Source: Callorhinchus milii (taxonomy: Eukaryota). From it: a stretch of DNA of 64,000 nt. Shown here in pieces: positions 12,557-64,000 of the stretch. The translations under genes and the position numbers were made by a program. The stretch is from the NCBI RefSeq assembly GCF_018977255.1, contig NW_024704742.1, positions 45,200,001-45,264,000 of the forward strand, in the 5' to 3' direction. Under the pieces are notes generated by a model. It saw only the letters and a list, made by a program, of their open reading frames with translations. It was not told where the DNA came from and did no database searches. Every line of letters begins with the position of its first letter. The first letter of the stretch is position 1.

Positions 12557-12789
12557 GGATTACTATTGCAACAACACATCATCAGTTGAGTGAAACTAAC
12601 TTGTCTCACGATGGTCTAAATCCAGCTTACGGTCCCTATTAGTGGGTGAACAATCCAACACTTGGTGAATTCTGCTTCATAATGATAGCACAAGCCAACA
12701 TCTAAGGATGAAGAAGCAAGATCGCTTAGCCATCACATGCCAGTTATCCCTGTGGTATATATTCTTAAAACCTAGAAAGCAGAAGGATC
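12557..12789 (-). pseudogene. 28S rRNA-derived fragment (domain V / peptidyl-transferase region), decayed
   Basis: The + strand reads GCAACAACACATCATCAGT..AAACTAAC.TGTCTCACGA.GGTCTAAA.CCAGCT...CCCTATTAGTGGGTGAACAATCCAAC.CTTGGTGAATTCTGCTTCA.AATGATAG...CCAGTTATCCCTGTGGTA...AGAAGGATC. This is the reverse complement of conserved eukaryotic 28S rRNA, with substitutions and small deletions. Confidence 0.93.
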
Positions 12790-13001
12790 ATCTTAGTGCA
12801 GTAACTATGATTGAAAGCAAATCTCTTGTTTCAGATACTGTTGTTGGCCCAGTAACATAATGTTAAATCATGGAAGTGAATAGTTATGAAATCACCTCCA
12901 ACTTTTTATCCACCATGAGGTATCCACCATCAGATACCCATGGTTCGATCAGATTGTATTTACTGTTTTGACAGGTATGAATTTTAAAATTTGTGTGAGT
13001 A

Positions 13002-14953
13002 GGTAGCACTATGTTTCAGTGCTCTCCTCACAGTGTAATGGTAATATTATGTTCCAGTGCTCTCCTCACAGTGCCCCTCTGACCCTCCTCTCACAATTAC
13101 CTACCTTCCTCAATCTCTATTCTCCACAACTCCCTCTCCTCCATCCTTGACTCCCTTGCACCCATCAACTCCCGAACTGCCTCATATTCCCATAAATCCC
13201 CCAGGACACCAATCATCCCCGATCCCTCAAGACACAGGTGCACGCCACCGAACGCACCTGGACCAAATCAAACCTAATGGTGCATTGGCAGATCTGGCTT
13301 GACCACACTAAGACTTACCACTCTGCCTTCACCTCTGCCAAATCATCCTTTTATTCCAAGATAATCTTGGAGGTCACAAACAATCCCAAGATACTCTTCT
13401 CTACCACTAACACCCTCCTCCATCCACTTTCCCACAACTCGCACATCCACTCCTCCAATTCCAACTGCAAGGAGATGTTGAACTTCCTCGAATCCCAAAT
13501 CGATGCGATTTGTTCGGCTACATCTCCCCCATCCACTGGTACCCACTTGCCTCCTCCCCCTCACGCACTGGCCCCACCCATCCCTCCCTAAACACCTTCA
13601 ACCCTGTCTCCTCTCTTCCCTCACCCCCATCATTTCAAAAATGAAGCCCACCACCTGTGCCCTCGACCCCATCCCCACCCCTCTCCTCACCTCCCAGTCC
13701 CACCTCCTGACCCTTCATTTAACTAACATTATCAACCTCTCCTTATCCAACAGCAATGTTCCCACCCTCCTTAAAACAGCTGTCATCACCCACATCCTCA
13801 AAAAACCTTTCCTGGATGCATCTCTACTCTCCAGCTATTGCCCCATCTACAACCACCCATTCCTCTCCAAAGTGCTGGAACAAGTTGTCACGTCTCAGCT
13901 TCGCTCTTTCCTCTTTTGCCATTCCCTCTCTGAACCCCACAAATTGGGTTTCCATGCTGCCCACAGCATGGCAACAGCACTGGTCAAAGTCACTAATGAC
14001 GTTCTGAACATCTGTGAACAGGGCTCGCTCTGCCTCCTTGTCCTCCTTGACCTCTCTGCTGCCTTCAACACTGTCGACCATTCTATCCTCCTACGCCACC
14101 TCTCAATACGGAACCTTGGCATCCTGTTCGACACTCAACTATCCTTCATTCCCCAAATCCGTGCCATGACCCGCTCCGCCTTTCCCCACTTTTGCATAAT
14201 CGTTTGGCTCCACCACTGACTCATACCGCAAGCTGCCGAGACCCTTATACATGCATTCATAACACCCAGACTCGACTACGCAAACTCCCTACTTGGCGGT
14301 CTCCTCTACTCCTCGCTCCATAGGCTGTAGATCATCCAGAACTCTGCAGATTGTGTCCCCTCCTGCACCAGGCTTTGCAACCCTATCACCCTGACCCTCG
14401 CCCAACTCCACTGGCTTCCTATCACACAGATAATACAGTTCAAGATCCTGGTCCTCACTTTCAAAGCCCTCCATGGCCTTGCTCCCCTCTACCTCTGAGA
14501 CCTCCTAACCCCCTACCAACCTGTCCGCTCCCTCTACTCAGCTGGCTCTGGCCTGCTTCACGTCCCCCGCCTCACCAGCCCCATCATTGATGGCCAGGCC
14601 TTCAGCCACCCTCTGAAACTTCATCCCTCCGCCTTGCCCCCTCCCTTGCCTCCTTCAAGACCCATGACAAGAACCCTCCTCCTTGACCGTGCCTTCAGTC
14701 ACCCTTCTTCCCTCATGTCCCCCACAATCCCCAATCTTTAACCCCAGCTCAGGTCCGAAACACTGATTGTCCAGTGCCTTGGGACCTCCTCCCGAGTGAA
14801 AGGCGCTATACAAATGTAATTTTGTTGTTGTTGGGTGATGGTAGCACTATGTTCCAGTGCTCTCCTCACAGTGGATGATGATAGCTCTGAGTTCCGGTGC
14901 TCTCCTAACAGTGCAAGTGGATAGTACTGAGTTGAGGTGCTTTGCTCACACAG
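13002..14953. repeat. ~38-40 bp minisatellite split by an L2 insertion (two units at 13002-13073, about three at 14834-14953)
   Basis: The unit GGTAGCACTATGTTCCAGTGCTCTCCTCACAGTG(G)GTGAT is visible on both sides of the L2. Confidence 0.85.
13074..14833 (+). mobile_element. L2 LINE, 5'-truncated and internally deleted ORF2 pseudogene
   Basis: ORF 13503-14219 has TTCALDPIPT, KKPFLD, PFLSKVLEQVV and LVLLDLSAAFNTVDHSILL, then jumps to RNLGILFD (the YADD core is missing). It ends with the L2 3' motif and (TTG)n. Confidence 0.95.
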
Positions 14954-15789
14954 AAAGAATTGGTAGCAGTAAGTTGCAATGCTTTTCGAAATTTGGCTTT
15001 CAACCAGTTGCAATTACTTTGCAACACCTCCGTGCAAAGTCAAAGTGTTACAAGGCTAGCATATCCAGATGGTCCCACATCCATCGTGTGCCAAACTGAT
15101 GCTAATGCAGTTGAAGTTATACTGTTTATCCTTTGTTACTGCAAGGGGGTAGCACTTCACAGAAATAAAGCCATGCAGCATAGCTACTCTGTGCAGTCTA
15201 AATTAACACGAGAGCCTTGGAGAAGCTCGGTTCCTGCAAAAATACCCTTATACTATTAAAGAAAGCTGTAAATAAACTGCTGTACTACTGTAAAAAGACA
15301 CTTCTCCAAGTTCTCCTAATTAGCCAGTGCCTGGGTATACTGCAGCACCCCCCCACCCCGGTAAAAGAACGCGACAACTAAAACCACTATAGAGGATTGA
15401 CTTGTTTCCAACATTCTGAGATACACCTAATCCCTGTTGCACTCCTCCACAGAAGTAAGGTTATTGAACAAGACTTAAGAAATACCCAGTTACTACATTT
15501 TAGGGAAAATCATGTGAAGCACTTTGAGATGTTATGTTGCCATGATATGTTCGTGATGAATAAAATCAGTTTTTTATTAATTTTTACTGAAGAAATAGCA
15601 AAGGATGAGCTTTTGGAGTAAATCTTCAAGATGGGCTTCACATGGAAGATGTGCCTGATTGATAGGTTAATTAACACTAGCGTAAATTATTCAATGAAGA
15701 ATCCAGCATTCGGTAACATGTTCTTGTGATAATTAAAACAAGGAATGAGTTGTGAAACTTTGCATATTTCACTCCAGATTTTCCTGATT

Positions 15790-16430
15790 TCATAGAATCA
15801 TAGTATCATAGAATCATACAGCACAAAAAGAGGCCATTCGGCCCATCGAGTCTGTGCCGGCTCTTTGAAAAGAGCAACGTAATGTCAATCGCACTCCCCA
15901 GCCCTTTCCCCATAACACTGCAAACCCATCCTCCTCAAATACCCATCCACTGTGTTTTTAAAAGTTGTTATCGAATCGGCCTCCACCACGCTTTCAGGCA
16001 ATGCGTTCCAGATTCGAACAATTCGCGGCGTCAAAAAATTTCTTCTCACCTCCCCTCTGCTTCTTTTAGAAACTATTTTAAATCTGTGACCTCCAGTCAC
16101 CGACACACCCACCAGTGGAAACAGTTTTTCCCTTTCTAACCTATCAAATCCCCTCATGATTTTGAAGATCTCTATTAGGTATCCTCGTAACCTTCTCTGT
16201 TCCAATGAGAATAATCCCAGCCTCTCTAGCCTGTCCTCATAATCAAGGTCCCTCATACCTGGTTCCATCCTCGTAAATCTCCTCTGCACCCTTTCCAATG
16301 CCTTAACATTCTTCCTATAGTGTGGTGCCCAGAACTGGGCGCAGTATTCTAACTGAGGCCTAACCAGTGTTTTATATATGTTAATCATAACCTCCTGACT
16401 CTTGTACTCTATGCCACTATTTATAAAGCC
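15790..16430 (-). mobile_element. CR1 LINE 3' fragment
   Basis: ORF 15885-16445 has YKTLVRPQLEYCAQFWAPHY...LERVQRRFTRM...WNALPE; (ATTCTATG)n tail at 15790-15817. Confidence 0.96.
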
Positions 16431-16944
16431 ATTTGGTGAATTCAATGGGGAAAAGCTTGTAAGATTCCATTCCTCATTTTATTTAGTACACTTTAAGGAA
16501 TTGTTACTCAGTTACTATTTCTCAATTAGCAGTACCTTAAAGACTCACCTACACTCACTGTGCTGCTCCAGTTTATCATTCAGCCATAGGCATTGATCCT
16601 GGTCAGTTGGTTGCTAGACAATTTAAAAATCACACAAAGGACATAAAGTCATTTTATAGGCAGTTTCCCAGTCTTAGCCAGTTATGTGTTGGGACATTAG
16701 AAGGTTTAACTCATGGGAACCTTTATGTTATAATAAAATAATAATCCTTGCATTTTATATAGTGCATCATCATCATCAACATCATCATCATAATGTCATC
16801 AAGGTGGCTCAAAGTACAACATTGTTGTTGTTGTTGTTGTTTGCCTGCTTACATATAAGGTTGCCTCTACCTCAAGAAAGATTTCCCACTCAGTTCCCTC
16901 CTCATACTGCTGGGCTCTCTGCTCTCTACTGTGCCTTCAAAAAA

Positions 16945-17300
16945 AATTTGTTACTTCAATCCACGACTGTTTATGGGACACTGTTGTGCGCAATTGGCTG
17001 CTGTGTATCACCCACCAAATATATAGTCAATTCACTTTACAGTTTATTCTGTGAAGCACTTTGAGGCGTCTCAAAAATGTGATACAGCTCTATGTCAAAT
17101 GTAAGGATTATTATTATTATTAAATAAATAATAATTTGGTCATTCAATCCACGACTGTTTGTGGGAGACTGCTGTGTGACTGCTGTGTTTCACCCAAAAA
17201 ATGTAGTTAATTCACTTGATAGTATATTCTGTGAAGACTTTGAAACCTCTCAAATATGTGATAAGACGCTATATCAAATGCAAGAATTATTATTATTATC
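16945..17300 (+). mobile_element. Two tandem SINE 3' halves
   Basis: Two consecutive copies of CAATCCACGACTGTTT...TCAAATG.AAG.(ATT)n at about 16945-17121 and 17125-17300. Confidence 0.85.
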
Positions 17301-17467
17301 ATTTGCAGAGTAGCATGAGGTGGCTGGGTGGCAGAGGGTCAGTTTATAACCAGTTTTCTCAAGATGTTAAGCTTTGACTGGACCGACAAAAGAAGGAGCT
17401 TTATAAATAAAATTATAAATCAGAAAATAAATGAAACGGTGTTTTGTCTCGGATTTATCTCAATTGT

Positions 17468-20215: not shown

Positions 20216-20577
20216 AGAGCTATGTAATGAGTTTTGAATCTTTCTCCCAATGTGAAGGGTATTATATAAGAGTAAATTATTGTTGGTTTTGTTGACCTCA
20301 TCTTTCCAGAATATCCGCTCTAATATCTTGTTACTGCATCAAGTTATTTCTTGGATGAGTCCAGTTTCTTGGCTTCAAACAACTTTCCTGGTAATCTATT
20401 CCAGTCATTAATTACTCTCTCTGGGTAAAGAAATACTTCCTGGTGTCGATCATGAAATTGCCCTTTGTAACCCTGGACCTGTGAAACAAGAAGCAAGAAC
20501 AGGACAGTCAAGGGACACACAGAAGAAAATCTTTCAGAAAAGATTCATTTTAGTAGCATACACTTAACTTTTACAGC

Positions 20578-22470: not shown

Positions 22471-22859
22471 TTTCAGTAAGTCTTCTAAATCCCTCAGGAA
22501 TGATTTATTTTGCACATTTTCATTTAGTGCTTTTGAACTAAATCAACTAATCTCTGGTGTCTGTTTTCTGCAATAGTATCGTAGAAAAATATGCACTTAT
22601 ATTTAAAAAAAACCCTTGCATTTGATATAGAACCTTTAATGTTGAAATATCTCGAAGTGCTTCTCAGAGAATTGTCTAGTGTAATTACTATATTTATAGG
22701 CAAACAGTTACTGTATTGATTTGCTCTTCTGTGTTGAGTATTCAGTGTTTTCTCAGAGGGAAGCTTTTTGCTTACCTAATTACAGACAGTTCAAGTACAG
22801 GTTCAAAGGAGCCAAGACTTGGACGCCCCAAGCCTCATTGCCTACCCTGTGGAAGCAAT

Positions 22860-23171
22860 AGGCTGGCAATAGGAGTGATAGGTTTGTCGTAATTGGCAAA
22901 CAGTGGAAAGCCTCAGAGTGTTCACAATGGAAAGATCCAGTTTCAGCAATACCCTAATACACACTCTGAGGTTCTGAATCCTTGGCTCTTGACAACTTGT
23001 ACCTAAACACTCAGTGATTAGCTAAGCAAGATGCACTCTCCCAGGGAGCATGCACACTCTATATGAGAGAAATAAACTATGCGTATTTGGGACTCTCTGT
23101 TGTTTGGTTTGGATACTTTTGAACATAGTAATGGTTTCTATGTGTGTCAGACATCCAGCTGGCCAAGAAAA
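22860..23171 (+). mobile_element. A-tailed retroposon family X, copy 1 (old)
   Basis: Ends ACATAGTAATGGTTTCTATGTGTGTCAGACATCCAGCTGGCCAAGAAAA and contains CACACTCTGAGG...CCTTGGCTCTTG; matches the reverse complement of 45582-46191. Confidence 0.75.
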
Positions 23172-23339
23172 TTAGAATGTCGGGTTGAAGGTGGAATAGG
23201 AAGGTTGCCCTCTGAGTGGAATTAATGGTCTCTGGCTGTTTTACTGTTTGCATGTGATACAATTAGGATTTGGCACTTCATGGGCTGCAAATTTTGCAAA
23301 CCCAAGGGTTGTAATTAATGCAACAAAATTGGTGAGCTT

Positions 23340-23711
23340 TGAAAATGTGTCTCTAATAGTAATAAATGTCAAATACATGTTTTTTTGTGGTAGAGGTTTC
23401 TGTTTAATTTTTGCACTGATACGTTATATAGATAACTGTTTTATTTACATGTAAAACTAATCTAGTGGCTTGGCTTCATTATATGTTTATTACATTTTGT
23501 GCAGCGTCTTCACTTATTCTGTGTCACTTCTGTTTTCTCATTTCATATACAAGCTGGAAACATGTACAGTACTTCTCCCTCCAGAGAGCAAGCCTCAGAA
23601 TTCCTGTAATATTTGTCCACATATATCACTCTTTGGTTCCTCTGAAAATGTGTCTCTAATAGTAATACATTTTAAATAAATGTTGTTTTGCGATAGAGGT
23701 TTCTATTTAAG
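23340..23711. repeat. ~69-bp imperfect direct repeat (23340-23408 and 23643-23711)
   Basis: TGAAAATGTGTCTCTAATAGTAATA...ATGTT.TTT.G.G.TAGAGGTTTCT.TTTAA occurs twice, 303 bp apart. Confidence 0.85.
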
Positions 23712-25003
23712 TTCTATTTCCTTTTCATTTGCTTATGTACAACATTCATTTTTATTTCTAATCAAATATAATTTACAACATTCTACGCAAAGTTTATTTT
23801 TACATGAAAGTTGCTACTTAAATGGAAGTTATAATTTTCTACATATGCAGAAGTGGTTTATATTTTACTGAAAACTGTACTAGCATATTGCAGCTAGGAA
23901 ATGGATAGTACATCATGTCCGTTCAGAATAATGAGGAAATCCAATGCAATGCCAATAGATTTGTTCCCTACAGTGCAAAGGCATTACTAAAAATCAACGT
24001 TGCTCTTCAGACATCGTAAGTGTAGAAAAAAGGGAAATATACTGATTTAAATCTCCTGATAGTAATAATAAAATCTGGTTCAACTGTGACTTATAGCACT
24101 GGCAGTGAAAATGCTTCAAATTATCAGAAAAGGCAGAATACTCAATTTAATGTGATCCACCCCTTGATAATTGGCCCAATTAGTGTTTTTAGTACATTGT
24201 TAAAACTATCAAAGAGAGATTTAATCCCGCGAGTGCTAGTTTTTGCTTGGCTCTAAACTAATATCAAAAGTATTGAACTTATGAAATAGGACCCTTAAAT
24301 ACTGCCGATTATAATACTTTCACATTTATACAACATTTGGATAAAATACGTCAAAAAAGGTTGATTTTGGTTGAATCGATTTGATTTCCAGAATGTCAGT
24401 CGTCAACCACACCTCTATGCAAATGATTCCTCCAGATCACGAACAGGATGTGCACTAAAATCCCCCAATGACACTATTACAATGCAACATTCATCTGTGA
24501 ATACGTAGATCGGGTTACATGTTAATCAAAAGTCATGTTCATTCAGAATCTGGTTCCCAAGTATAATTTCTGATGTTATACAAGGTTATGAAACCAAAAT
24601 CTGGGGATATTTAGTAACTAAGTTTGTGAGTTTTTGAAATCACAATTAGCTGGTTTGCGAATATCCCATGTTAAACAGCTTTTAATATTCGCAAAAAGAA
24701 ATCACAATTAACATTTTGAATCATGTTAGCAATATCCAAATTAGATCCTAATGTTACTGCTCACTATAATTGGAAGCCAGAAGTCTAATAGTCTGGCTTC
24801 ATGGACATCCCCATTGAGAATCCTAATGGTATTGGGAAGGGGGATGATGTGAGAGAAGGGAAGAAAGATTATTTGCCACATTCATTGTGATAACTGTCAA
24901 AGTAAATTTACCCCAATGTATTTAACACAGTGAAAAAAAATGTAGAGCAAGGGGATGCAGACTTGAGCTCAGAAGAAGGAACGAACATAAGAAGCTTGGT
25001 TCA

Positions 25004-28466: not shown

Positions 28467-29596
28467 TCATAGAATCATAGAATTGTACAACATAAAAAGA
28501 GGCCATTCGGCCCATCGAGTCTGTGCCGGCACTTTGAACACAGCAATTAATGTCAATCCCACTTCCCAGCCCTTTCCCTATAACCCAGCAAATCCATCCT
28601 CCTCAATTACCCATCCACCGCGTTTTTAAAAGTTGTCATCGAATCGGCCTCGACCACCCTTTCAGGCAATGCGTTCCAGATTCGAACAACTCGCGGCGTG
28701 AAAAAATTTCTTCTCACCTCCCCTCTGCTTCTTTTAGAGACTATTTTGAATCTGTGACCTCGAGTCACCGACACACCCACCAGTGGAAACAGTTTTTCCC
28801 TTTCCAACCTATCAAAACCCCTCATGATTTTGAAGACCTCTATTAGGTCTCCTCGTAACCTTCTCAGTTCCAATGAGAATAATCCCAGCCTCTCTAGCCT
28901 GTCCTCATAATCAAGGTCCCTCATTCCTGATCCTCATAAATCTCCTCTGCACCCTTTCCAATGCCTTAACATCCTTCCTATAGTGTGGTGCCCAGAACTG
29001 GACACATTATTCTAACTGAGGCCTGACCAGTGTTTTATATAGTTTAATCATAACCTCCTGACTCTTGTACTCTGTGCCCCTACTTATAAAGCCTAGAATC
29101 CCATTTGCCCTTTTTACAGCTGTCTACGTGTCCTGCCGCCTTCAAGGATTCATTTACCTGTACCCACAGATCACTCTGTTCTTTTACCCCCCTTAAGATT
29201 GTATTACCTAGCTATATTGCCTCCCCTCATTCTTTCTACCAAAATGCATTATTTCGCATTTCTCCACATTGAAATTCATCTGCCATGTGTCTGCCCATTT
29301 TACCATTCTCTCTATGTCTTCCTGCAGTTGGCTGCTATCCTTCTCACTGTTTACTCCCCTACCTAACTTTGTGTCGTCTGTAAACTTGGAAATGGTGCTT
29401 GCTATACCCAAGTCCAGATCATTTATGTATATTAAGAAGAGCAGTGGTCCTAATACCGATCCCTGGGGGATACCACTGTACACTTCCCTCCAGTCAGAAA
29501 AGCAGCCGTTCACCACAACTCTCTGCTTTCTGTCTTCCAACCAGTTCTGGATCCATGCTGCCACTCTCCCTTTTATACCATGGGCTTCTATCTTTG
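28467..29596 (-). mobile_element. CR1 LINE, 5'-truncated ORF2 pseudogene
   Basis: WIQNWLEDRKQRVVVNG...GIPQGSVLGPLLFLIYINDLD...KFTDDTKLG...WQMNFNVEKC plus an ATTCTATG tail; same subfamily as 15790-16430. Confidence 0.97.
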
Positions 29597-31828: not shown

Positions 31829-32697
31829 ATCATCTTTAAACCTAATGATTCCTTTTTTGCTGCAAGGTGTCATGACCTTGTTCTCTTGAAAACTACCATC
31901 CAGAGGTGTGCTCATAGCAGACAAGCAGACAATGATATTTCTATCATACGTGCATGGTGCAAAAGGTCAGTATTGTTACTAATGAGAGGAGAATAACCCT
32001 TGTGTGTTAGTTTTACCCAGGGATGAGCTGCTCTCGCTAATATTGCACAGTTGATGGACATACTGATGTCCATCACTGAACTAGAATGCTTTCTTTATGT
32101 AATGGGAGCTCTTAATCCGTATTAATACATTCCTTACCTTTCTGGGCCACCAACAGGTGAGGTAATGTATTGGAAAGAAGGTAATTAAGAACAAAAGGGA
32201 GTCACCGCAGGCAGTTTCTTCTCTTAAAGTGAAGACAATGAGCTTGAATGATTTTAGGTCCTGATTTGGCTCACATTAGTTTATTCTGCTGGTTATTAAA
32301 TGAATTCCCCCATCCACCATTGCCATGGTGATAGACTATCGATTAGCCATCTGGGAATACAATTCAAATTGTGTACCTTTATTCTGGCTTCTATCTTATT
32401 ACTAATAAGACGTGTGTAGACATGACAGGGAAATCAGAACAATGAAGCCAGGTATCCTTCCCCCAATATCCAAATACGCTTTGATGACCAATTTCAATTT
32501 AATACTGTACATTAGTTTACCTACTAAATTAAAACTGCTTTAAATAGAATCTGAGGCCACAAGTGGCTGTTTTAATCCTCAATATAAATGACCTAAATGT
32601 ATTCCACTCTTTTGCTCACTCCCCAAACTCTTAATATTGTTTACTTTGCAGGGGGCACAATCCGCGACAGCAACAAGGTAAAGGCTGCATGTGTTGA

Positions 32698-32921
32698 TTT
32701 TTTTGGGTCAGCCGAGTGTTTGACGCATGCAGAAAACCCATCAGCGTGCTTAAAGAGTATCATGTCACTCGGGGTAGGGACCCTTCACACTCAGAATCCT
32801 GCAAGCCCAAACCCTAATGGATTGGGTGGTCCTAGCTGAACAAGCAGTAGGAAAGCTTGCAGTGTTCTCAATAGCAAGCTACGTGATTTTAAACTCCAGC
32901 GGTAACCCCATTACACACTCA
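32698..32921 (-). mobile_element. A-tailed retroposon family X, copy 3, with inverted 5' segment
   Basis: 32698-32760 is the 3' end on the minus strand; 32761-32921 is an upstream family segment in the opposite orientation. Confidence 0.8.
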
Positions 32922-34409
32922 GTGTTTATTATTGATGAAGTAAGTCAAAAATAAATGAATGTCAATTTAAGCAAACAAAACTTGGGGTCTGTTTTTTGGA
33001 CAGAAAACTCAAACAACTGATTCTCTTGTCCTTAACTGCGGCACGACAATTTCAAAGTTGCCAAGTTCCGTGTGGTTAAAAATCCAACGCAGTCAAAATA
33101 AAAATTGCATGTTCTTTCTGAATAATCCTCTGCAGTTGAGTTTCTATTACCTATTCATTACACATTCCAATGCAAGATCCTACTGATAAACAAAGGGAAC
33201 ACAACCCAAGCAGTAATATGCATCCAGATAGGATGAGGGAGAAAATTTACTTGGGTCTAGATTTACTCTATTTACTTAGAAGTTCAGATCATCCAGAATT
33301 TGGCAAATTCATAAATGCAAGCCTAATTTTGAAGCTGTAAATTATTTTAAGATCTTTGGGTAAAACATTTTCAGTATTAAGACTAAATTCAACAATTTAC
33401 CAAATTCTGATCACTATGACGATGAAATAGAATAAATGTAGAGACAGATTGAATTCCTCGGTCAATGACTTCTACATTTTATCTTTTGTGCTCAGTGTGA
33501 GAAGAAAGCAAGGGGGATTGTAAATTGCAAATAACAAACCTGGAGGCTAATTTATAAATGCTCGGAATCAAGAAAGAAACATCACAACAGTCAACAACCC
33601 GAGGTACACAATACATAAGTCCAACAACAGAAGGTACCAGAAACACTAGTCATGTATTAAGAGCACCCAAAACTTCCAAACCTAATCCATTCACAGCACT
33701 TCACAACCTAACAAGATTTGCCTATATTTTTTGTTTCCTCATTCAGTGTGCTGAGCTCTTTGTTCTCTATTGATAGAAAATATGCAGGAATGCTTTTTTT
33801 TCAATCACCGTATAATCTCAAGTAAGCTCTGTAAAACAGAAGATAAATATTATATCAATAGGTAAAATCATACTTGTATCAATGTCACATAACACCTAAA
33901 TACAAAATAGCTGGAAAGCAGTGCGTAGTGTAGTTATTTGCAAAATTAGGTATATATTCTAAAACTATTACAGTAGACCATTTTGACATTTCACACATTA
34001 AACCAATGATCTGATTTCAGGCTCAAAGCATTGAATAGAATCTCATAATCCTGCTTTGGTCAAGATCATTCTCACATCTATACTCATATTCGATCATTTC
34101 CAATAGGACAGTGATGTACCAAGGACAAGGTTGTTTAAGGAATTTTTTTTTGTTACGGAACACATCTATTTTCAATTAAAGAATTACATTTCACCAAGAA
34201 ACAAAATTACTAAAATAATCTTCACAAAATTACTGAGCAATATTTGGGGATTAGGTTCTTTTTAGATTATAAAACTACAATATCTTCTGTTGTGATTATT
34301 GTTCAGTAAAATAATGTGGTAATACAGGATAATTCCTCTTTATCAAGTTTCAGCCAACTTGTTCCTTTGGAATAACATAAAGTTATTTTTTTTAATATGC
34401 CCTATCCTC

Positions 34410-43949: not shown

Positions 43950-44770
43950 CCAGGAAGGTGACCAAAGGCACGGTTGAAAAGAAAGGTCTTCAGCCGAGAG
44001 CTGAAAATAAGAAGAGAGGGGGTGCGGCGAAAGGAGTGAGGAAGCGAGTTCCAGAGCCTCGGGACATAGTGGCTCCAGGATCCGTCACTGTGAAGCACTC
44101 TGAGACGCCATCCAAAATCCTTGGCTAGTTGCAAAGCTTCCCGCTTTAGAGTCTTGTAGCTCAGTGGTTAGAGCACACGCTTTGCAGGTGAGAAACCTGG
44201 GTGGAGCGGAGGATTCGGGGGACAAGGAGGAGGTCAGACCCGGTGGAGCGAAGGCAACGGGCACTGTTTTGAGGAGAGAGGAGGTCAGAGAGGTAAGGGG
44301 GTGCAGAGGAGTGGAGGGATTTGAAGACAAGGGTGAGGATCTTGAAGTCGATCCTCTCTGGGATAGGCAGCCAGTGCAGTTTGGCAAGGACAGGGATTAT
44401 TGAGGAGCGGAGTTTGGTGTGGTTAAGAATGTGGGCTGCAGAGTTTTGGATGACCTGGATTTTATGAATGGTAGTTGAGGGGAGAACGGTGAGGAGGGCG
44501 TTGGAGTAGTCCAGCCAAGAGGTGACCTAGGCATGGACCAGGGTTTCAGCGGCTTTTGGAGTGAGATATTGGTGAAGACGGGCAATGCATCGGAGGTGGA
44601 AGAAAGCTTTGCTGGTGCAGGTCCGGATTTGGGGGAGGAAGGATAATTGGGGGTCAAACCTGACGTCTAGGTTGTGTACGGGTTCAGAGAGTTTTATGGG
44701 GAGGTCGGGTAGGTGGAGGAGGTGAGAACCATGTGATTTTAGATGTTGACGAGAGCCAAAGAGTATTTCA
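43950..44770 (-). mobile_element. L2 3' region with an embedded SINE head
   Basis: ORFs PRLWNSLPHSFR...LKTFLF and EILFGSRQHL...VHNLDVRFDPQLSF...AAETLVHA. Confidence 0.88.
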
Positions 44771-45019: not shown

Positions 45020-45581
45020 AATTTCTATGATTCTACAAGTCAGCTTTTGTCCTGCATCATTTTGTATTCACTGGAGAAGTTGTAAATAACATAAAAGGTG
45101 ACGAGATACAAAAGCAAGTTTCAGTATAATCCCTGAGTGCTAAATCCTAACAAATGGTTTGGTGACGTAAGGGACCAGTGCAGAATTTAGATTCTGACTT
45201 TGTGAGATTTGTTGAGAGAATCATTCAGGTACTGTGAAATTGATTGAATAACAGGCTGACTGATCTGCTCTGAAGCTATATTGGTTGTCCAATCAAAAAT
45301 GTTGCTGTTGAGATATTACAATAACATTCAATTCATTATATGCTTTAGTACAGCATGAATCAGTAGATAAAAATATATTGTTGGAAATCTGGTTTTCATT
45401 CCCTTTTGTAGATAAGCACAACTGGGCTGAAAATCCAGACAGTGTTTGGTGTAATACTTTGGCAATGTTGGCCATGAATACAATTTTCATTGTGCATCAT
45501 CAAAGATGCTATGACTTATTCTGACTAAAATTACCGCCCATACATTTGCTGAATTCCTTTTGGATGTACAAATTAGTTGAT

Positions 45582-46191
45582 TTTTTTTTATTTTTGGTCA
45601 GCTGGGTGTCTGACACATGCGGAAACCCATCACTATGTTTAAGAGTATTCAACCCAAACTGAGATTGCCATACATCCCACCTACACATTGAAAACCCAGA
45701 GATAGATTGTTGGAATGGAATGCGCACTCTCTCCCTGGAGGGACACATCCTGTTTACCTAATTCCGGAAAGTATTTAGCACAGGTTGGCAAGAACCAAGG
45801 CTTGAGGACCCCAGAGTGTGCATTGGGGTACTGCTGGAGGCTAACCAGCTAAAACCGCACAGCTTGCCATTGATATTCTGTCTTTCTATCTGGCAAGCTG
45901 TCCCACTGCTTGTCCAGCTAGGACCACACTACCCGTTAGGGCTTTGGCTTGTAAGGTTAACAGGAGCTGAGTGGGATGACTCCCTGTCCCCAGTAACAGG
46001 TCTGCCCTTCCAGCTCCTGCCAATGAGCCAGACTGACTGTGCTGTCATCAGCAGTGCCCTGGAATACTGCAGACCTGTCTGGCTCAGGAACCAGACTACC
46101 AACACCACCATGGAGACCTGGCTTAATTCCGACATTCCACAGCCAGGCATGTCACCTTGGAGCCAGTTCGGCACCCAAGAAGACCCCACTT
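45582..46191 (-). mobile_element. A-tailed retroposon family X, copy 4 (longest, ~610 bp)
   Basis: T-run, then GGTCAGCTGGGTGTCTGACACATGCGG; flanked by ATTAGTTGAT (45572-45581) and ATTACTTGAT (46192-46201). Confidence 0.87.
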
Positions 46192-49072
46192 ATTACTTGA
46201 TATAAACAATCAAAATAGATAAGAAAGGAAATTTCTTCAGATGGAGGTTTGAAAACCTGAGCTCCTATACTACCAGGGTTAGTAAGCTTTTGAAGAGGTA
46301 ATATTTTGCCTTTGTCTGATCTTGTCATTTAGTTTTAACAGTTTATGAATTTATGGACACTAAACAAAAGTGGTAATTGTCAGGCACAAAAGTCATCTCA
46401 AATCACCTTTCAAATATCTAATACTTTTATTATCTTGATTTTGCATTTGATCCCTGGTTTATCTACAGTAATTTAGCATTTAGCTCTTTTTTGCAGCAAT
46501 AGGAAGAACACAGTTAACTGAATAGACACTATCTGTTGGCAGTTGTTGAAACCAACTATCCAGCTTGAAGTGAGTGTTTTAACTTTTACTGATTGACAAG
46601 TTAACCAGATGACAGAGGTTGACCTTGTGACTATTTTAGATAGCCATGACATGGTAGATGCTGAGGCACAAATGATAAAATGTTTTCAACTATGCATTTA
46701 CATTTTTATCAAAATTGTAAAGAATATTCTGTTACTGAGTTATGGTAAGGATTAAATGAAACATTTGGATTTCTTTTATCATAGCAATTTTGGAAAAAGT
46801 GAAAATTCACAAAACAAATTTATTTGAAAAGGTTCAGAAAGCAGAAAAGTAATTATTTAACTGTATTCTTTGCTCTCTTCCTGCAAAAATAATGAGAGTA
46901 TAAACTTTATGCTTTTTTACTGCAGCTGTAGTTTTAGTCTAGTTTGCTCTATTTGCAAGTATTTTTTCTCTCATATCCACATGCTACTAATTCCTAATCA
47001 GTATATGCTGACTGTTTCAATCACTTCCCATGAGGACAATCACCGGTATTGTCTTTCCTTTCAGCAGCAAAAGAAAAATCGATTAAGATTAACTATTCCT
47101 CTTTTATCTCCATTCTTTTGCTGAAAACAAATGTGTTCATGAGTCCCTGATTATGACTGGTCACAAGGGATGTATTTGCTCTCTGTTGGATAGGATTTAG
47201 CAATGATGCCTGGGGAAGCTTCACACCACCTCAGAATGTTGGAGTTGTTTTAACACATTGTAAAGATGCATAGAATTGGTAAAGAACATCTGCTATGGTA
47301 TCTTGGGAAGAACAGGAAATTCTAATTTAACGTCTCTATGGCATTATCCTCTGAATTGCTTAATTCGTAATGATCTCATATTCACTGGTTTGTATTATAT
47401 CCTGAATTATGTACTTTTAACTCAAAGATTACTTCTTACTTGATGCTGTGTAGACCATGTGACTTCTTTCCAAATGAAATTTGCAAATCCTTGTTCAGAT
47501 TTGCTATGAAAGGTGAAAACATCGGTTGTAATTTTTATTTATCTTCTTCATATCAGAAACTACCAAGAACATATCATGAACAAGAGATACTACCACAATG
47601 TACAGTTCAGAAATGAATATAAGATCATGACACGGAAATCAAACTCAAGAGGCCATGTAATCCTACATGTACCCCAATCACATCTTTGTGATGAGAGTTT
47701 ATAATAGACACATCCTGATCTGTGTGTTGTGTTCTCACATAAAATTGAGATCTGTGAAATACAACCAGTCAGGGAGAGTAAAACATTACAATGTTGAATT
47801 GGTATCTTGATATCGTTGATATCATTGTAGCTGGACAAGAACACTGTAGAAATGTTGCTGAGATTTATCTTCTTGTAATTTTGCCTTTATTTATTCACCT
47901 TCCTCAGGAGATTTAAAGGACCTAATACATTTTATACAAAACTGATTTTATTCTGCTGACAGTGGAAAAACATTGTTGGGAAAGGATAAGGAAGTCAAAG
48001 AAATTGAAAGAAAGACAAGAGTAATTGATGGATAGTAAAGCCAAATAAACAAGTCAGCAGGCAAAGGAAAATTCAGGTCTGTAAACAAGACAGTGATGTT
48101 TTTATCAGGTAGAGGAGGGTAAAGGACACTCTCTGAAATAGACAAAAACACATTATTTTTTCACACCAAAGATAAAATCAAGTGATGAGCCAAAAATGTT
48201 CAAGAAGTTCTAAACAGATCTGAACAACAAGAAGGGCTAAGGATCCCCAAAAAGGTACAACATGAAACTTATGTGCTTGTGATAGCCTCCCGACATGAAA
48301 GACACGGTATAGATGTAAATTGCATTGTAAATTGCATTGTAACACAGAACTTAATGTAAGAATGGGGCAATTTGAAAATGAAGATTTCAATTAAGGTATA
48401 AAGAAGCTGTAAAATGGAAAGACATTAAGAAATGAAAAATAATGTGGACTGAGGATACCTGATAAGAAAAGAAGGATCACAGCAGTTTGAAGAGATTATT
48501 TGAAAGAGTTTGGACCAATAGCAAGCTGCTATTGAATTAATTTGGAATGCAAAATAATATATTTGCATTATTAAAGTATACTTTAAATAACAATGATTAA
48601 ATCAGTTGCATAATTAATGCAGATTTACTTTCCAAATTAAATTTGTTTTTTGACAAAACACTTCTCATTTCTAATAAATCTCTTGTTGATGTATTGTTAT
48701 AAAAATCATATTTTCTCCTTTGTTTCAGTTACTTGTCTTTTTCTCCTCCAGAATATGCATACATATCTGGCAGCATGGAGCCATGTCCCCAGTCTCTGCC
48801 AATGCTTCTCTATAGCTTGTTGCCAGGAGCGATGAGGTTGTCTGATACTTTGATTTACTTCCTCTCTGACTCATTGAAAACACATTGGCACAATTTGGTG
48901 GATTTTATATGCCATGGTCTTGCACATTATTGCATTAAATTCATTCATTCTGCCATTGCTAATTCTTCAGCTACAATTCCAGCATATTATTTATAACAAA
49001 AATGTGTAGCTAACAATAAAAATTGCCATTTGGCCATTGCACTAGTAATTATTAACCCTTGGACTGCTCATA

Positions 49073-59104: not shown

Positions 59105-60040
59105 GACATAAGGAAACAGGAACAGCAGGAGACCATTCAGGCCATAGATGGTATTCTACCAGTTTAATAGATCTTTTAATGCTAACATCCTAACTTTTTG
59201 CCATAATCCTTAATAACCTCTACTACCCAAATACCTATCTACCTCTTTTTCAAACATCCCTATTGATTCCGTCTCTACAGCTTTCTGGTCAGTGCTTAGC
59301 AAAGATTGTACTTCTGGTATGCAGCAATCACATTAGGTTAATGTGTGAGGGAACTGTGACAGTTAGATTTCATTAACGTTCCCCCTCAAGGCTGGGATTG
59401 AGGTATTTACTTTTCATGGATTTGCTCTAATAAGTTATGTGGTGTATGGATATCAGGTCGGCTACAAAGATGTCATCGTTCTAGGTACAAAAGTGAGACA
59501 GGCCTTCTGAGACCAGAGTTCCACTATTTTACCTTAAAGATCCTAAGGTCAGTTTAGATGAAGATGGCCCTTCAGCCCATATGATTTATCCAGAATACTC
59601 ATCCAACCGACCTCTTGTAACAGCATCAAGCTACTTTTTAAATGAGTTCAATGTCACGGCCTCAACCACCTTTCCTGGTATCCTGTTCTAGTTGTTTATT
59701 ACCCTCTGAGAAAGAAAAACTTCCTGGTATCTGTCCTAAAATTGTCCCTTGCAACTCTAAATCTATGTGATGTTGTTCTATTGTCTTGGTGCATCCTAAA
59801 GTATTGTTCTGGGTTTACTTTGTCAATCCCATTTAAAATTTTATACACGTATATAAGGTGTCATCTGAATCATTTTCTTTCAAGACTGAAGAACCCTAGC
59901 TTGTCTACTCGTTGATCATTACTCATTTCTGTAACACTGGGGATCATTCTCATTGCTCTCCCCTACACTACCTCTCAGACTTGGGAAGCCCCTCGCGTCG
60001 CAGGGTCAGAACCGTATACAGTACTCTGATGGGCATAAGC
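59105..60040 (-). mobile_element. Two degenerate CR1 3' fragments (59105-59290 and 59560-60040)
   Basis: GGAACAGCAGGAGACCATTCAG and GATGGCCCTTCAGCCCAT are CR1 3' ends; GCCTCAACCACCTTTCCTGG...TTTTCAAGACTGAAGAACCCTAGC is the antisense of LGxFSLE. Confidence 0.7.
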
Positions 60041-61825: not shown

Positions 61826-62018
61826 ATTTATTATATATTCAATTTGAAAATAACCAGGAACAAAATAGTTATCTGTCTGGAGCACAGGACCACTGACTAT
61901 TTGGGAATTAAAGCCACTAAATCAAACTCATTCACCATAGTCACAGTTCACCAATTTATTGCAGCTTTTTTCTCTCTTTTAAAAACTAATTCAGCAAATG
62001 AATTGTGCTAGCAAGTTC

Positions 62019-62255
62019 TTTTTGGGCAGTCAGGTGTCTGATACATGTGAAAGCCCATTTTCACACTTAAGCATATCCAAACCAAATTACTGTGAGTTCC
62101 ACATATATATGGAAATTGCTTTTGCTGGTATAGAGTGCACACTCTACCACTGGATGTATGCAACATGCTTACCTTGTCATAGAGAGTTTAATCACAGGTT
62201 GGCAAGAACCAAGGCTCATCGACCCCAATGTGCATTGGGATACTCACGGACCAGC
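62019..62255 (-). mobile_element. A-tailed retroposon family X, copy 5
   Basis: TTTTTGGGCAGTCAGGTGTCTGATACATG...CACAGGTTGGCAAGAACCAAGGCT...TGTGCATTGGGATACT. Confidence 0.8.
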
Positions 62256-63783
62256 AAAAACTTGAAACTTGAAACTTGGACGTAAAATCAAAGGAAGGAC
62301 TTTTTTACAGGAACTATTATATTTCTTATTATACAGGAAGCCAATATTGTCTTAGGATCATAAGCTGAAGTATACCCCTCCCTTTTAGCTTTCTTGAAAA
62401 AGGAGATCACCAGCTGGGATGAACACCATCTCCACTACCTGATGAGAAGTAAGGTATCAATTCCACACATCAAGAAGATCACAAAAAATGTACTCACCCT
62501 CAACATCCAGCCAATAACTGTGACTCTCACGTGAGATGGAAGATCTCACAGAACATAAACAAGCCACAGTCAAATTCTTCTTCCTAGAGAGTCTGTAGGA
62601 AGATACAGGCTAAATTATATGTATTCCCATGAATCTACAAAGTGTCTTCTATTTCGTGTTATGTTGTCTATTACCCTTAATGAATATGAAGCACATCCTA
62701 CAATTCAAGCCAATACCGTCCTTCTGCACATCCACTGACCCCTCCGCCCCAGAGTCCCAGTCTTAACCACCCTGACAGCTTGTTTCATTTGTTAATTACC
62801 TTCTGGGTATAAAAAACTTGAAATTGCTCTTTGCACACTGATAGCTCCTAATTATTATATTCTAATGTATAGGTGGCCATTCTTTCTAATCATGTTACAG
62901 TTACCTTACCTATAAGCTCATGCACAAACCAGAAAACCAGAGACCTCAGTTTTCTCCCTTTTATTAGAAATAAACAGAAAAATTCAAGGAGCCCAACTTC
63001 CACACAGATATTTCCTCATCAGTTCCATGCAAGACAGCTAAAGCTGTGCTACAAGGTTGTATAATTTGTTATGTCCCAACACTGCCAAAGGAGTAACAGA
63101 AATAAATGTTTGCCCTTGTGTGGAAGGTTGTATGGTTGAAACAGTTGCATGGAAGAAGCAAATTTGATATAATTCATCCCAACCTGTTTAAGGCTGTAAC
63201 GTGACTTGGCTTCCTAATTACTAAGACAGTCAGGTTGTGTAATTCCTAAAGATATTTTACTCTTGGAGATGGTAGCGTGCCTTCCGAGCATTGACTTTAG
63301 AAGTTTTGATCTTGTTGTTCAAAATCCTTTTTTTCAGTTAATACGAATATGAATTATGATTTCTGGAATGTTTACAGCATTTATTATATATTACTATTAT
63401 TTATTAGAATATTTTCTCCCTCTCTCTGAGAGGAATGATTTCACAGCATTTTACAATTAGCCTTGTTATGTTTCACTGGTCATGACCAGTGACGAAGTAA
63501 GGTAGCATCATTTAAGGAATGATACGTAAGGATATTCCATGTTGAATATGCAAAAATGGGATGGGTTCCCGGTTGTTAAAAGCCAAACTGTTTTTTGATG
63601 GTCATCTTATGCTGGCAGCAGAGTTCTTCAGTTGGGAAAATTAGAATGCTTCTATTTTTGCATTGCTGAGGAAAGAGAGATCCTTCATGCATATAAAATA
63701 TGGACTTGTAATACAAAATTCTAGCAAAGATGCTTGTCGTTTGCTTGAAAATAAACAAAATTAGACTTACCCTTAAGAATTTG

Positions 63784-64000
63784 GTCACTGGGGCAAGAAT
63801 TCTGTCCACTCAGCTCCTGTTAACTCTGCGAGATGGGTAGGGTGGTTTAGCTGGACAAGCAGTGAAACAGATAGTGTGCTTTCAATGGCAATGAAGCTTA
63901 GCTGGTTAAAGTCCAGCAGTACCCAAATGCACACTCTGTGGTCTCTAAGCCTTGGCTTTTGCCAAATTGCATTGAATACTCTCTGGAAATAGGTAAAACT
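63784..64000 (+). mobile_element. A-tailed retroposon family X, copy 6 (runs off the window)
   Basis: CCACTCAGCTCCTGTTAAC...TAGCTGGACAAGCAGTG...TCCAGCAGTACCCAAATGCACACTCTG...AAGCCTTGG matches the reverse complement of ~45750-46000. Confidence 0.82.

Follow-up and report, generated by a model that had tools for sequence, protein, structure and literature searches.

Within a 64,000-nucleotide (nt) stretch of Callorhinchus milii DNA (contig NW_024704742.1, positions 45,200,001 to 45,264,000, forward strand; hereafter the window), we analyzed an A-tailed dispersed repeat, called family X here, whose longest copy lies at 45591-46169 on the minus strand. Family X is a real, old, high-copy dispersed family of retroposons that lack long terminal repeats (LTRs). 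Our preferred reading, to which we assign a probability of about 0.6, is that its members are 5'-truncated 3' untranslated regions (UTRs) of an old and abundant A-tailed long interspersed nuclear element (LINE) outside both L2 and CR1. The parent is most likely a third LINE lineage of the host of this window.

A blastn search with positions 45401-46400 against the window recovered all six copies (E 3e-74 to 2e-7) listed in a first-pass annotation, which had been made from the sequence alone. Two more fragments, at 15418-15325 (minus strand, E 4e-7) and 22830-22747 (minus strand), came from a search with a profile built on the two longest copies. Copies are named below by location, and model coordinates run 5' to 3'.

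45591..46169, minus strand: c45, the longest copy, non-coding; 579 nt homologous to other members, as given by blastn, the profile and the plateau in contig depth
25003..25502, minus strand: c25, the second near-full copy, 81% identical to c45, with a 66-nt internal deletion and an A-run; no target-site duplication (TSD) found
32692..32761, minus strand: direct 3' end of c32, model 523-589, with an A-run
32763..32922, plus strand: inverted internal piece of c32, model 176-368, abutting the c32 3' end
22876..23171, plus strand: c22, an older 5'-truncated copy, 69% identical to c45
22747..22830, minus strand: fragment head-to-head with c22, internal and separate, 60% like c22
62016..62262, minus strand: c62, an older 5'-truncated copy, 70% identical to c45
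63783..64000, plus strand: c63, 5'-truncated and cut by the window end, 76% identical to c45
15325..15418, minus strand: c15, a fragment covering model 31-124 in the 5' part, absent from the first list

Several extents were revised. The longest copy had been given as 45582-46191; homology runs from 46169 to 45591 and is followed by the A-run; the 22 nt at 46170-46191 are private to c45, with no counterpart elsewhere in the window. The copy placed at 32698-32921 is present but consists of two pieces in opposite orientation, 32761-32698 (minus) and 32763-32922 (plus), and that placed at ~22860-23171 (plus) in fact spans 22876-23171, the opposite-strand fragment at 22830-22747 being separate from it. 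A 3' motif described as common to the copies before the A-run is near exact in three of five, but carries 3-4 changes in the other two. The 5' extents do vary as described, with limits at model positions 1, 5, 31, 176, 178, 242 and 320. Identity to c45 is 81% over 491 columns for c25 and 66-77% for the other seven pieces; for the six copies first listed, aligned to 45582-46169, the range is 69-81%. Between c45 and c25, transitions exceed transversions (61 against 34), as in neutral decay. Just downstream of c22 there is also a 74-bp direct repeat (23337-23410 and 23640-23713, 86% alike, 303 nt apart).

The longest copy can be divided into the following parts.

45581..45595, minus strand: A-rich tail, 15 nt with one interruption
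45596..45635, minus strand: conserved 3' terminus that carries a 5-bp stem-loop (45614-45597, paired-stem check) and an RTE/BovB-like terminal motif
45861..46075, minus strand: hairpin run with stems 46075/45999, 46053/46040, 46019/45961 and 45899/45861, largely kept in c25
46066..46169, plus strand: weak putative antisense tRNA-head and CORE-start segment with A-box-, B-box- and CORE-like blocks, in the 5' part of family X
46170..46191, minus strand: private 22 nt of c45 between the common boundary and the 5' TSD, either extra 5' nt or a part that other copies lack
46192..46201, minus strand: near-TSD of c45, 5' copy, 9/10 match
45572..45581, minus strand: near-TSD of c45, 3' copy, partner of 46192..46201

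The copies bear the signature of retroposition. All five with a visible 3' end close with an A-run. The 10-bp near-duplication reported around c45 (45572-45581 and 46192-46201) held up, matching at 9 of 10 positions with a chance of 0.0066 against 30,000 random flanks, and it sits 22 nt outside the common 5' boundary at 46169. The whole insert of c32 lies inside a 9-bp near-TSD (8/9, chance 0.0029). Near-TSDs of 9-10 bp were found on two of the five copies, with none credible on c25, c22 or c62; both begin with A after T (n = 2), and a T-stretch, which RTE elements would have about 10 nt upstream, lies at -11 to -14 in the target of c45 and is unclear in that of c32 (n = 2). At the join within c32 the inverted piece (model 176-368) meets the direct piece (model 523-589) with a 4-nt microhomology, the intervening region being lost. 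Judged by this layout, c32 is of twin-priming geometry, with a 5' inversion, and it is the one clear inversion among eight pieces. We rejected c22 and its neighboring fragment as a second twin-priming event, as both cover some of the same model positions and their likeness is only 60%.

According to the accessible part of PMC4245944, TSD lengths peak at 13-15 bp for L1, 10-12 bp for RTE, about 12 bp for Nimb and 3-5 bp for L2/CR1. The same source gives 5' inversions in cell assays for human L1 and for one case of Nimb-2_DR, and on that case inversions by twin priming are not exclusive to L1. Because of the A-run, the staggered 5' ends, the near-TSDs, the inversion and these length peaks, we conclude that family X was retroposed, probably not by the L2 or CR1 elements of the window. 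This sustains two earlier proposals, that the family is a retroposon and that its machinery differed from that of the L2/CR1 in the window, for which the near-TSDs of 9-10 bp stand against the L2/CR1 peak of 3-5 bp. Terminal inverted repeats and LTRs, which the first-pass annotation had named as features that speak against a retroposon, were looked for on the copies and not found. The reported lack of similarity to the L2 and CR1 tails was confirmed by self-BLAST, which gave no match to L2, CR1 or short interspersed nuclear element (SINE) copies or tails in the window. The suggested attribution to L1/Tx1 fared worse. A polyadenylation signal before the poly(A) tail is typical of L1. Among the six pieces examined, of which four keep a true 3' end, none has AATAAA or ATTAAA within its last 60 nt. 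The terminal motif, for its part, has a likeness to RTE tails.

We then considered abundance, using contigs from sequencing runs placed on 45100-46900 at 80% likeness. Four of the 24 listed runs were used, and yielded 50,745 pieces from organism A (run X1), 29,943 from organism B, 22,082 from organism C and 10,345 from a second run of organism A (X5), which is only guessed to be RNA and whose pieces are not informative on expression. Summed depth in X1 was near 9 in the flanks, and 9 again from 46198; within the element it was 1.9-3.4e5 at 45588-45770, 1.2-1.9e5 at 45771-46075 and 1.4-2.0e4 at 46076-46197, the last drop arising partly from lower identity there (42/61 for c45 against c25). This suggests of the order of 10^4 close relatives in organism A, the summed depth itself being no copy number. 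Next to the A-run, at three of the positions listed, 1,328 X1 contigs continue into flanks without consensus (agreement 0.33-0.39), and the 3' end of family X is therefore fixed. Loose ends past 45587-45592 show a sharp depth edge and no consensus flank. Before 45592, in three of three DNA runs, the consensus of the loose ends beside a 4-A run suggests a C and then further As on the sense strand (agreement only 0.39), so that some copies might have a (CAAAA)n-type tail.

A single organism B contig covers both flank and element (45177-45637, with 58 differences), and the c45 insertion thus predates at least the split of A and B. One contig of organism C enters the element by 30 letters, just below the bridging threshold. 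Among the 32 long contig pieces listed, six stop exactly at 46169. A joint from 46169 to 45615 in run X15 (organism C) places two family X copies in head-to-tail order, separated by 36 letters, and is the sole view of sequence 5' of the common boundary. Exact-pattern scans of metagenome contigs, viral contigs and prokaryote genomes gave no match, these being collections unlikely to contain the host.

The family appears to be non-coding and rich in hairpins. As first described, there is no recognizable open reading frame (ORF): stops occur in all six frames of six of six pieces, with no open frame in common. Pfam gave no match for two long stop-free frames, and we rejected a coding origin on these grounds. 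A phmmer search against 1.84 billion proteins returned an unrelated tandem-repeat protein as its sole match. Conservation is high at the 3' terminus, where c45 and c25 are identical at 52 of 58 positions. Folded whole, c45 beats 99 of 100 shuffles (z -2.5) and c25 gives z +0.35; the terminal and head segments alone fold no better than shuffles in nine of nine pieces (z -1.2 to +2.2). We chose six stems from c45, one of which, at the 5' end, was completed from c25, and 37 of their 40 pairs are kept in c25, two of them through compensatory changes on both sides. The 9-bp stem 45899/45861 can also be seen by eye in the loose-end consensus of other copies. From the pairs kept in c25, the hairpins look ancestral, but RNAalifold, run on five mid-body pieces, gave 12 pairs, none with a compensatory change. 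Rfam scans returned only chance matches within the copies, with no hepatitis delta virus (HDV)-like ribozyme and no hammerhead. A by-eye extension of c15 at its 5' side into the private 22 nt of c45 was tested and failed (P 0.32).

Under the preferred reading, the copies would be dead products of target-primed reverse transcription of a ~600-nt hairpin-rich 3' UTR. A LINE endonuclease would nick the two strands of AT-rich DNA at points ~10 bp apart; reverse transcription would start at the A-run and conserved terminal stem-loop and usually halt within a few hundred bases, and a second priming, by the top-strand end, would give the inversion of c32. The 5' end of the UTR may carry an old CORE-SINE captured in antisense. 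The first-pass annotation had offered either a long 3' UTR or a non-autonomous element. Both alternatives were apt, and we lean to the 3' UTR. This choice is supported by the staggered 5' limits, by the contig depth falling toward the 5' side, by the near-TSDs on two of five copies, by the twin-priming geometry of c32, by hairpins that look ancestral, and by the lack of a sense RNA polymerase III (Pol III) promoter for self-transcription of a 600-nt element.

Several observations weigh against a truncated UTR. In the window, none of the copies runs into an ORF, each of the eight pieces is about 600 nt long or shorter, and the sequences upstream of c45, c25 and c15 show no relation to one another (P 0.3-0.75). 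Moreover, the starts of c45 and c25 lie 7 nt apart, and four of the six listed contigs halting at 46169 end 0-8 letters away, both as expected of a discrete element. The stacked contigs at 46169 only mark where c45 ends. Coincident 5' ends also occur mid-body, since c63 and the c32 inversion start 2 nt apart. If the RTE-like terminus is real, an internally deleted RTE derivative would be more natural than a long UTR, going by the accessible part of PMC5786205. Because no ORF2 remnant was found in or beside any copy, family X cannot be assigned to a LINE clade, and the hints are split: the terminal motif points toward the RTE group, the inversion and A-tail toward L1-like machinery.

The strongest rival holds that family X is a discrete ~600-nt non-autonomous composite in which an antisense tRNA/CORE-SINE segment, a structured body and a tail of RTE type are joined, and that an RTE-group LINE mobilized it in trans. 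We consider it possible but unlikely. Such a composite could have originated as a head-inverted (twin-primed) tRNA-CORE-RTE SINE, of the build of MAR1, SINE2-2_ACar or WALLSI2, or from an RTE that had lost its interior. It would then have become a master under an outside RNA polymerase II promoter, in the manner of SVA, which includes an Alu-like domain in antisense. The failure to find a promoter for it counts against the composite, as does the lack of an HDV-like ribozyme in the Rfam scans. The 5' ends coinciding near 46162-46169 count in its favor.

Part of the case for the composite lies at the 3' terminus. The last ~40 nt of family X align by eye with the tails of BovB_VA, RTE-1_OAf and SINE2-1_EC in the accessible supplement of PMC5786205. 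A 24-nt motif from the BovB_VA tail scores 22 at the 3' ends of c45 and c25, with only two of 6,154 background windows that high, and this speaks for the composite, although in three older copies the same motif scores 14-16, not above background. The motif was selected post hoc from perhaps 20-30 tail types and, because it was chosen after the fact, we estimate a corrected chance near 0.01. A degenerate tail pattern, likewise post hoc, matches only c45 and c25 and none of 100 shuffles, again in favor of the composite. A by-eye match to RTE 5' UTRs was rejected on a score test: the 27-nt motif reached 26, which equals the background maximum, and not at the by-eye placement, a point against the composite. 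According to the accessible parts of PMC13295347 and PMC6007223, the TSDs of animal RTE LINEs start with A after T. The family X near-TSDs, 9-10 bp long with a T before and A as the first base, are compatible with RTE, but in most tails a simple A-run stands in place of (CAA)n. Taken together, the resemblance of the last ~40 nt to the RTE/BovB terminal motif appears weak.

The other part lies at the 5' end. The first-pass annotation had seen no tRNA head. The sense strand is indeed clean in ARAGORN, Rfam and position weight matrix (PWM) scans, but a weak tRNA/CORE-like signal lies in antisense, where A-box-, B-box- and CORE-start-like blocks follow in order at 46066-46169 on the strand opposite the A-tail. 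A three-block matrix was built from five tRNA-Ala SINEs of the window, with block spacings widened after c45 had been inspected. In a scan of both strands c45 scored 26.7 bits and c25 17.1 bits, ranking sixth and seventh, right behind the five training SINEs, which favors the composite; a Markov null of 800 kb gave no site at or above 20 bits and five at or above 16 bits. Pairwise shuffle tests of the antisense head gave P 0.005-0.018 for c45 and were not significant for c25 and c15. An nhmmer search with a five-row SINE profile missed the head even with three family X copies as its sole target. These last results, with the widened spacings, count against the composite. Also in its favor, one organism C contig continues past 46169 with an 8-mer in common with the SINE body of the window at nearly equal spacing, as seen by eye. 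We rate the odds that the putative antisense signal is real as roughly even or slightly higher. An old SINE trapped in the 3' UTR of a LINE would explain it just as well as a composite element would.

A stronger version of the composite seems to us more doubtful still. In it, the family would be a self-standing SVA-like element of cartilaginous fish that reached 10^4 copies or more without a Pol III promoter in sense, amplified by machinery of the RTE group that can produce twin-primed 5' inversions as well. In cell assays, as far as the accessible part of PMC4245944 goes, such inversions have so far come almost only from mammalian L1.

Two further rivals fare much worse. Penelope-like elements make truncated and inverted insertions with ~10-bp TSDs and carry a hammerhead ribozyme in the 3' pseudo-LTR. 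That family X consists of 3' fragments (the pseudo-LTR) of such an element would suit the inverted c32 piece, the head-to-head fragment at c22 and the hairpin-rich sequence, but is very improbable: a hammerhead core was found in none of nine pieces on either strand, nor in the Rfam scans, the inverted c32 piece is internal and not a 3' end, and an A-run closes all five copies with a visible 3' end. Least credible of all is a non-autonomous Helentron of the HINE/DINE-1 type read the opposite way, with the A-run as a T-string at its 5' end; there are 5-bp stem-loops near both ends and one tandem joint in organism C, but no 12-15-bp subterminal inverted repeat links the ends, the far end lacks a T-string in c45 and c25, and HINEs make no TSD (accessible part of PMC4067079), yet near-TSDs flank two of five copies. 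Three SINE candidates were rejected: a tRNA-derived SINE with a sense head, as ARAGORN, Rfam and PWM scans found no A and B boxes on the A-tailed strand; a UCON3 SINE, as no UCON3 domain matched by motif or eye; and an L2/CR1-tailed SINE, as self-BLAST gave no match to the L2, CR1 or SINE tails of the window.

Among known systems, family X resembles the 3' ends of A-tailed LINEs of the apurinic/apyrimidinic endonuclease type (L1/Tx1, Nimb, Vingi, RTEX) in a 3' end that is fixed and closes with an A-run, in 5' ends of varying position, in putative TSDs near 10 bp and in the 5' inversion, but differs in having no ORF2 remnant, no AATAAA before the tail and an unusually long hairpin-rich non-coding part. 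With the non-autonomous elements and SINEs of RTE/BovB (BovA, RTE-N1/N2_Lch, WALLSI1A, MAR1, SINE2-2_ACar, SINE2-1_EC, AFROSINE) it may have in common the terminal ~40 nt, which can be aligned by eye, and the length and first base A of its near-TSDs would fit; WALLSI1A, as described in the accessible part of its source, is likewise about 610 nt long with an unexplained 5' part. Unlike these, family X has no RTE 5'-UTR match above background and an A-run in place of (CAA)n, and its tRNA/CORE part, if real, is antisense. SVA and LAVA, considered by analogy only, are also non-coding and A-tailed and have a SINE-derived domain in antisense, as family X possibly does. However, family X lacks their variable-number tandem repeat, hexamer repeat, endogenous retrovirus part and any sequence relation, and its antisense domain is weakly supported.

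The other repeats of the window are tRNA-Ala-headed SINEs with (ATT)n and L2-type tails, Deu-type SINEs, and L2 and CR1 relics. This set fits the elephant-shark repeats in the accessible part of PMC5499810 and a published stretch of SINE2-2_CM, and suggests a holocephalan host. The elephant-shark CmiSINEs (SINE2-1_CM, SINE2-1B_CM) and SacSINE1-CM/SINE2-2_CM point to the same genome type as the tRNA-Ala and Deu-type SINEs here; they end in (ATT)n behind a sense Pol III head and have no body or tail in common with family X. Two CR1 3' ends (15798-16430 and 28467-29093) are 92% identical over 633 nt and much younger than family X. Tandem SINE tails occupy 16934-17321 (plus strand; 16934-17124 and 17127-17303), and a lone 54-nt tRNA-Ala SINE head at 44149-44202 (plus) abuts an L2 relic on the opposite strand. 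Beside tRNA-Ala SINEs we noted two-copy repeats at 19507-19570/21316-21379 and 19639-19729/54201-54293 (78-83% alike). A small dispersed repeat has three copies (1641-1770, 20326-20474 and 59613-59758, 71-75% alike). A degraded 28S rRNA fragment with internal gaps lies at 12590-12794 (minus; Rfam LSU_rRNA_eukarya, 136.5 bits), just upstream of the L2 relic that spans about 13000-14833.

We found no description of family X in the literature searched, a scope that leaves aside Repbase Reports and subscription papers. It was not described in the accessible parts of PMC7245038, PMC5753468, PMC4824008, PMC4350176, PMC5381603, PMC3747384 and PMC9004415, nor in the searchable supplement of PMC3964593, and motif searches of papers and three supplements gave no match. 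The family may already be catalogued.

Family X totals 2,260 nt, and since this is 3.5% of the window, it makes up a sizeable unlabelled part of the genome. If the composite reading were true, it would be a second independent SVA-type design, and 5' inversions would not be confined to L1 machinery. As truncated 3' UTRs of a LINE, which we favor, its copies would be ordinary genomic debris. The genome is usually described in terms of L2, CR1 and SINEs; were the parent of family X named, holocephalan annotation would gain a third major LINE lineage, together with old insertion markers that different species have in common.

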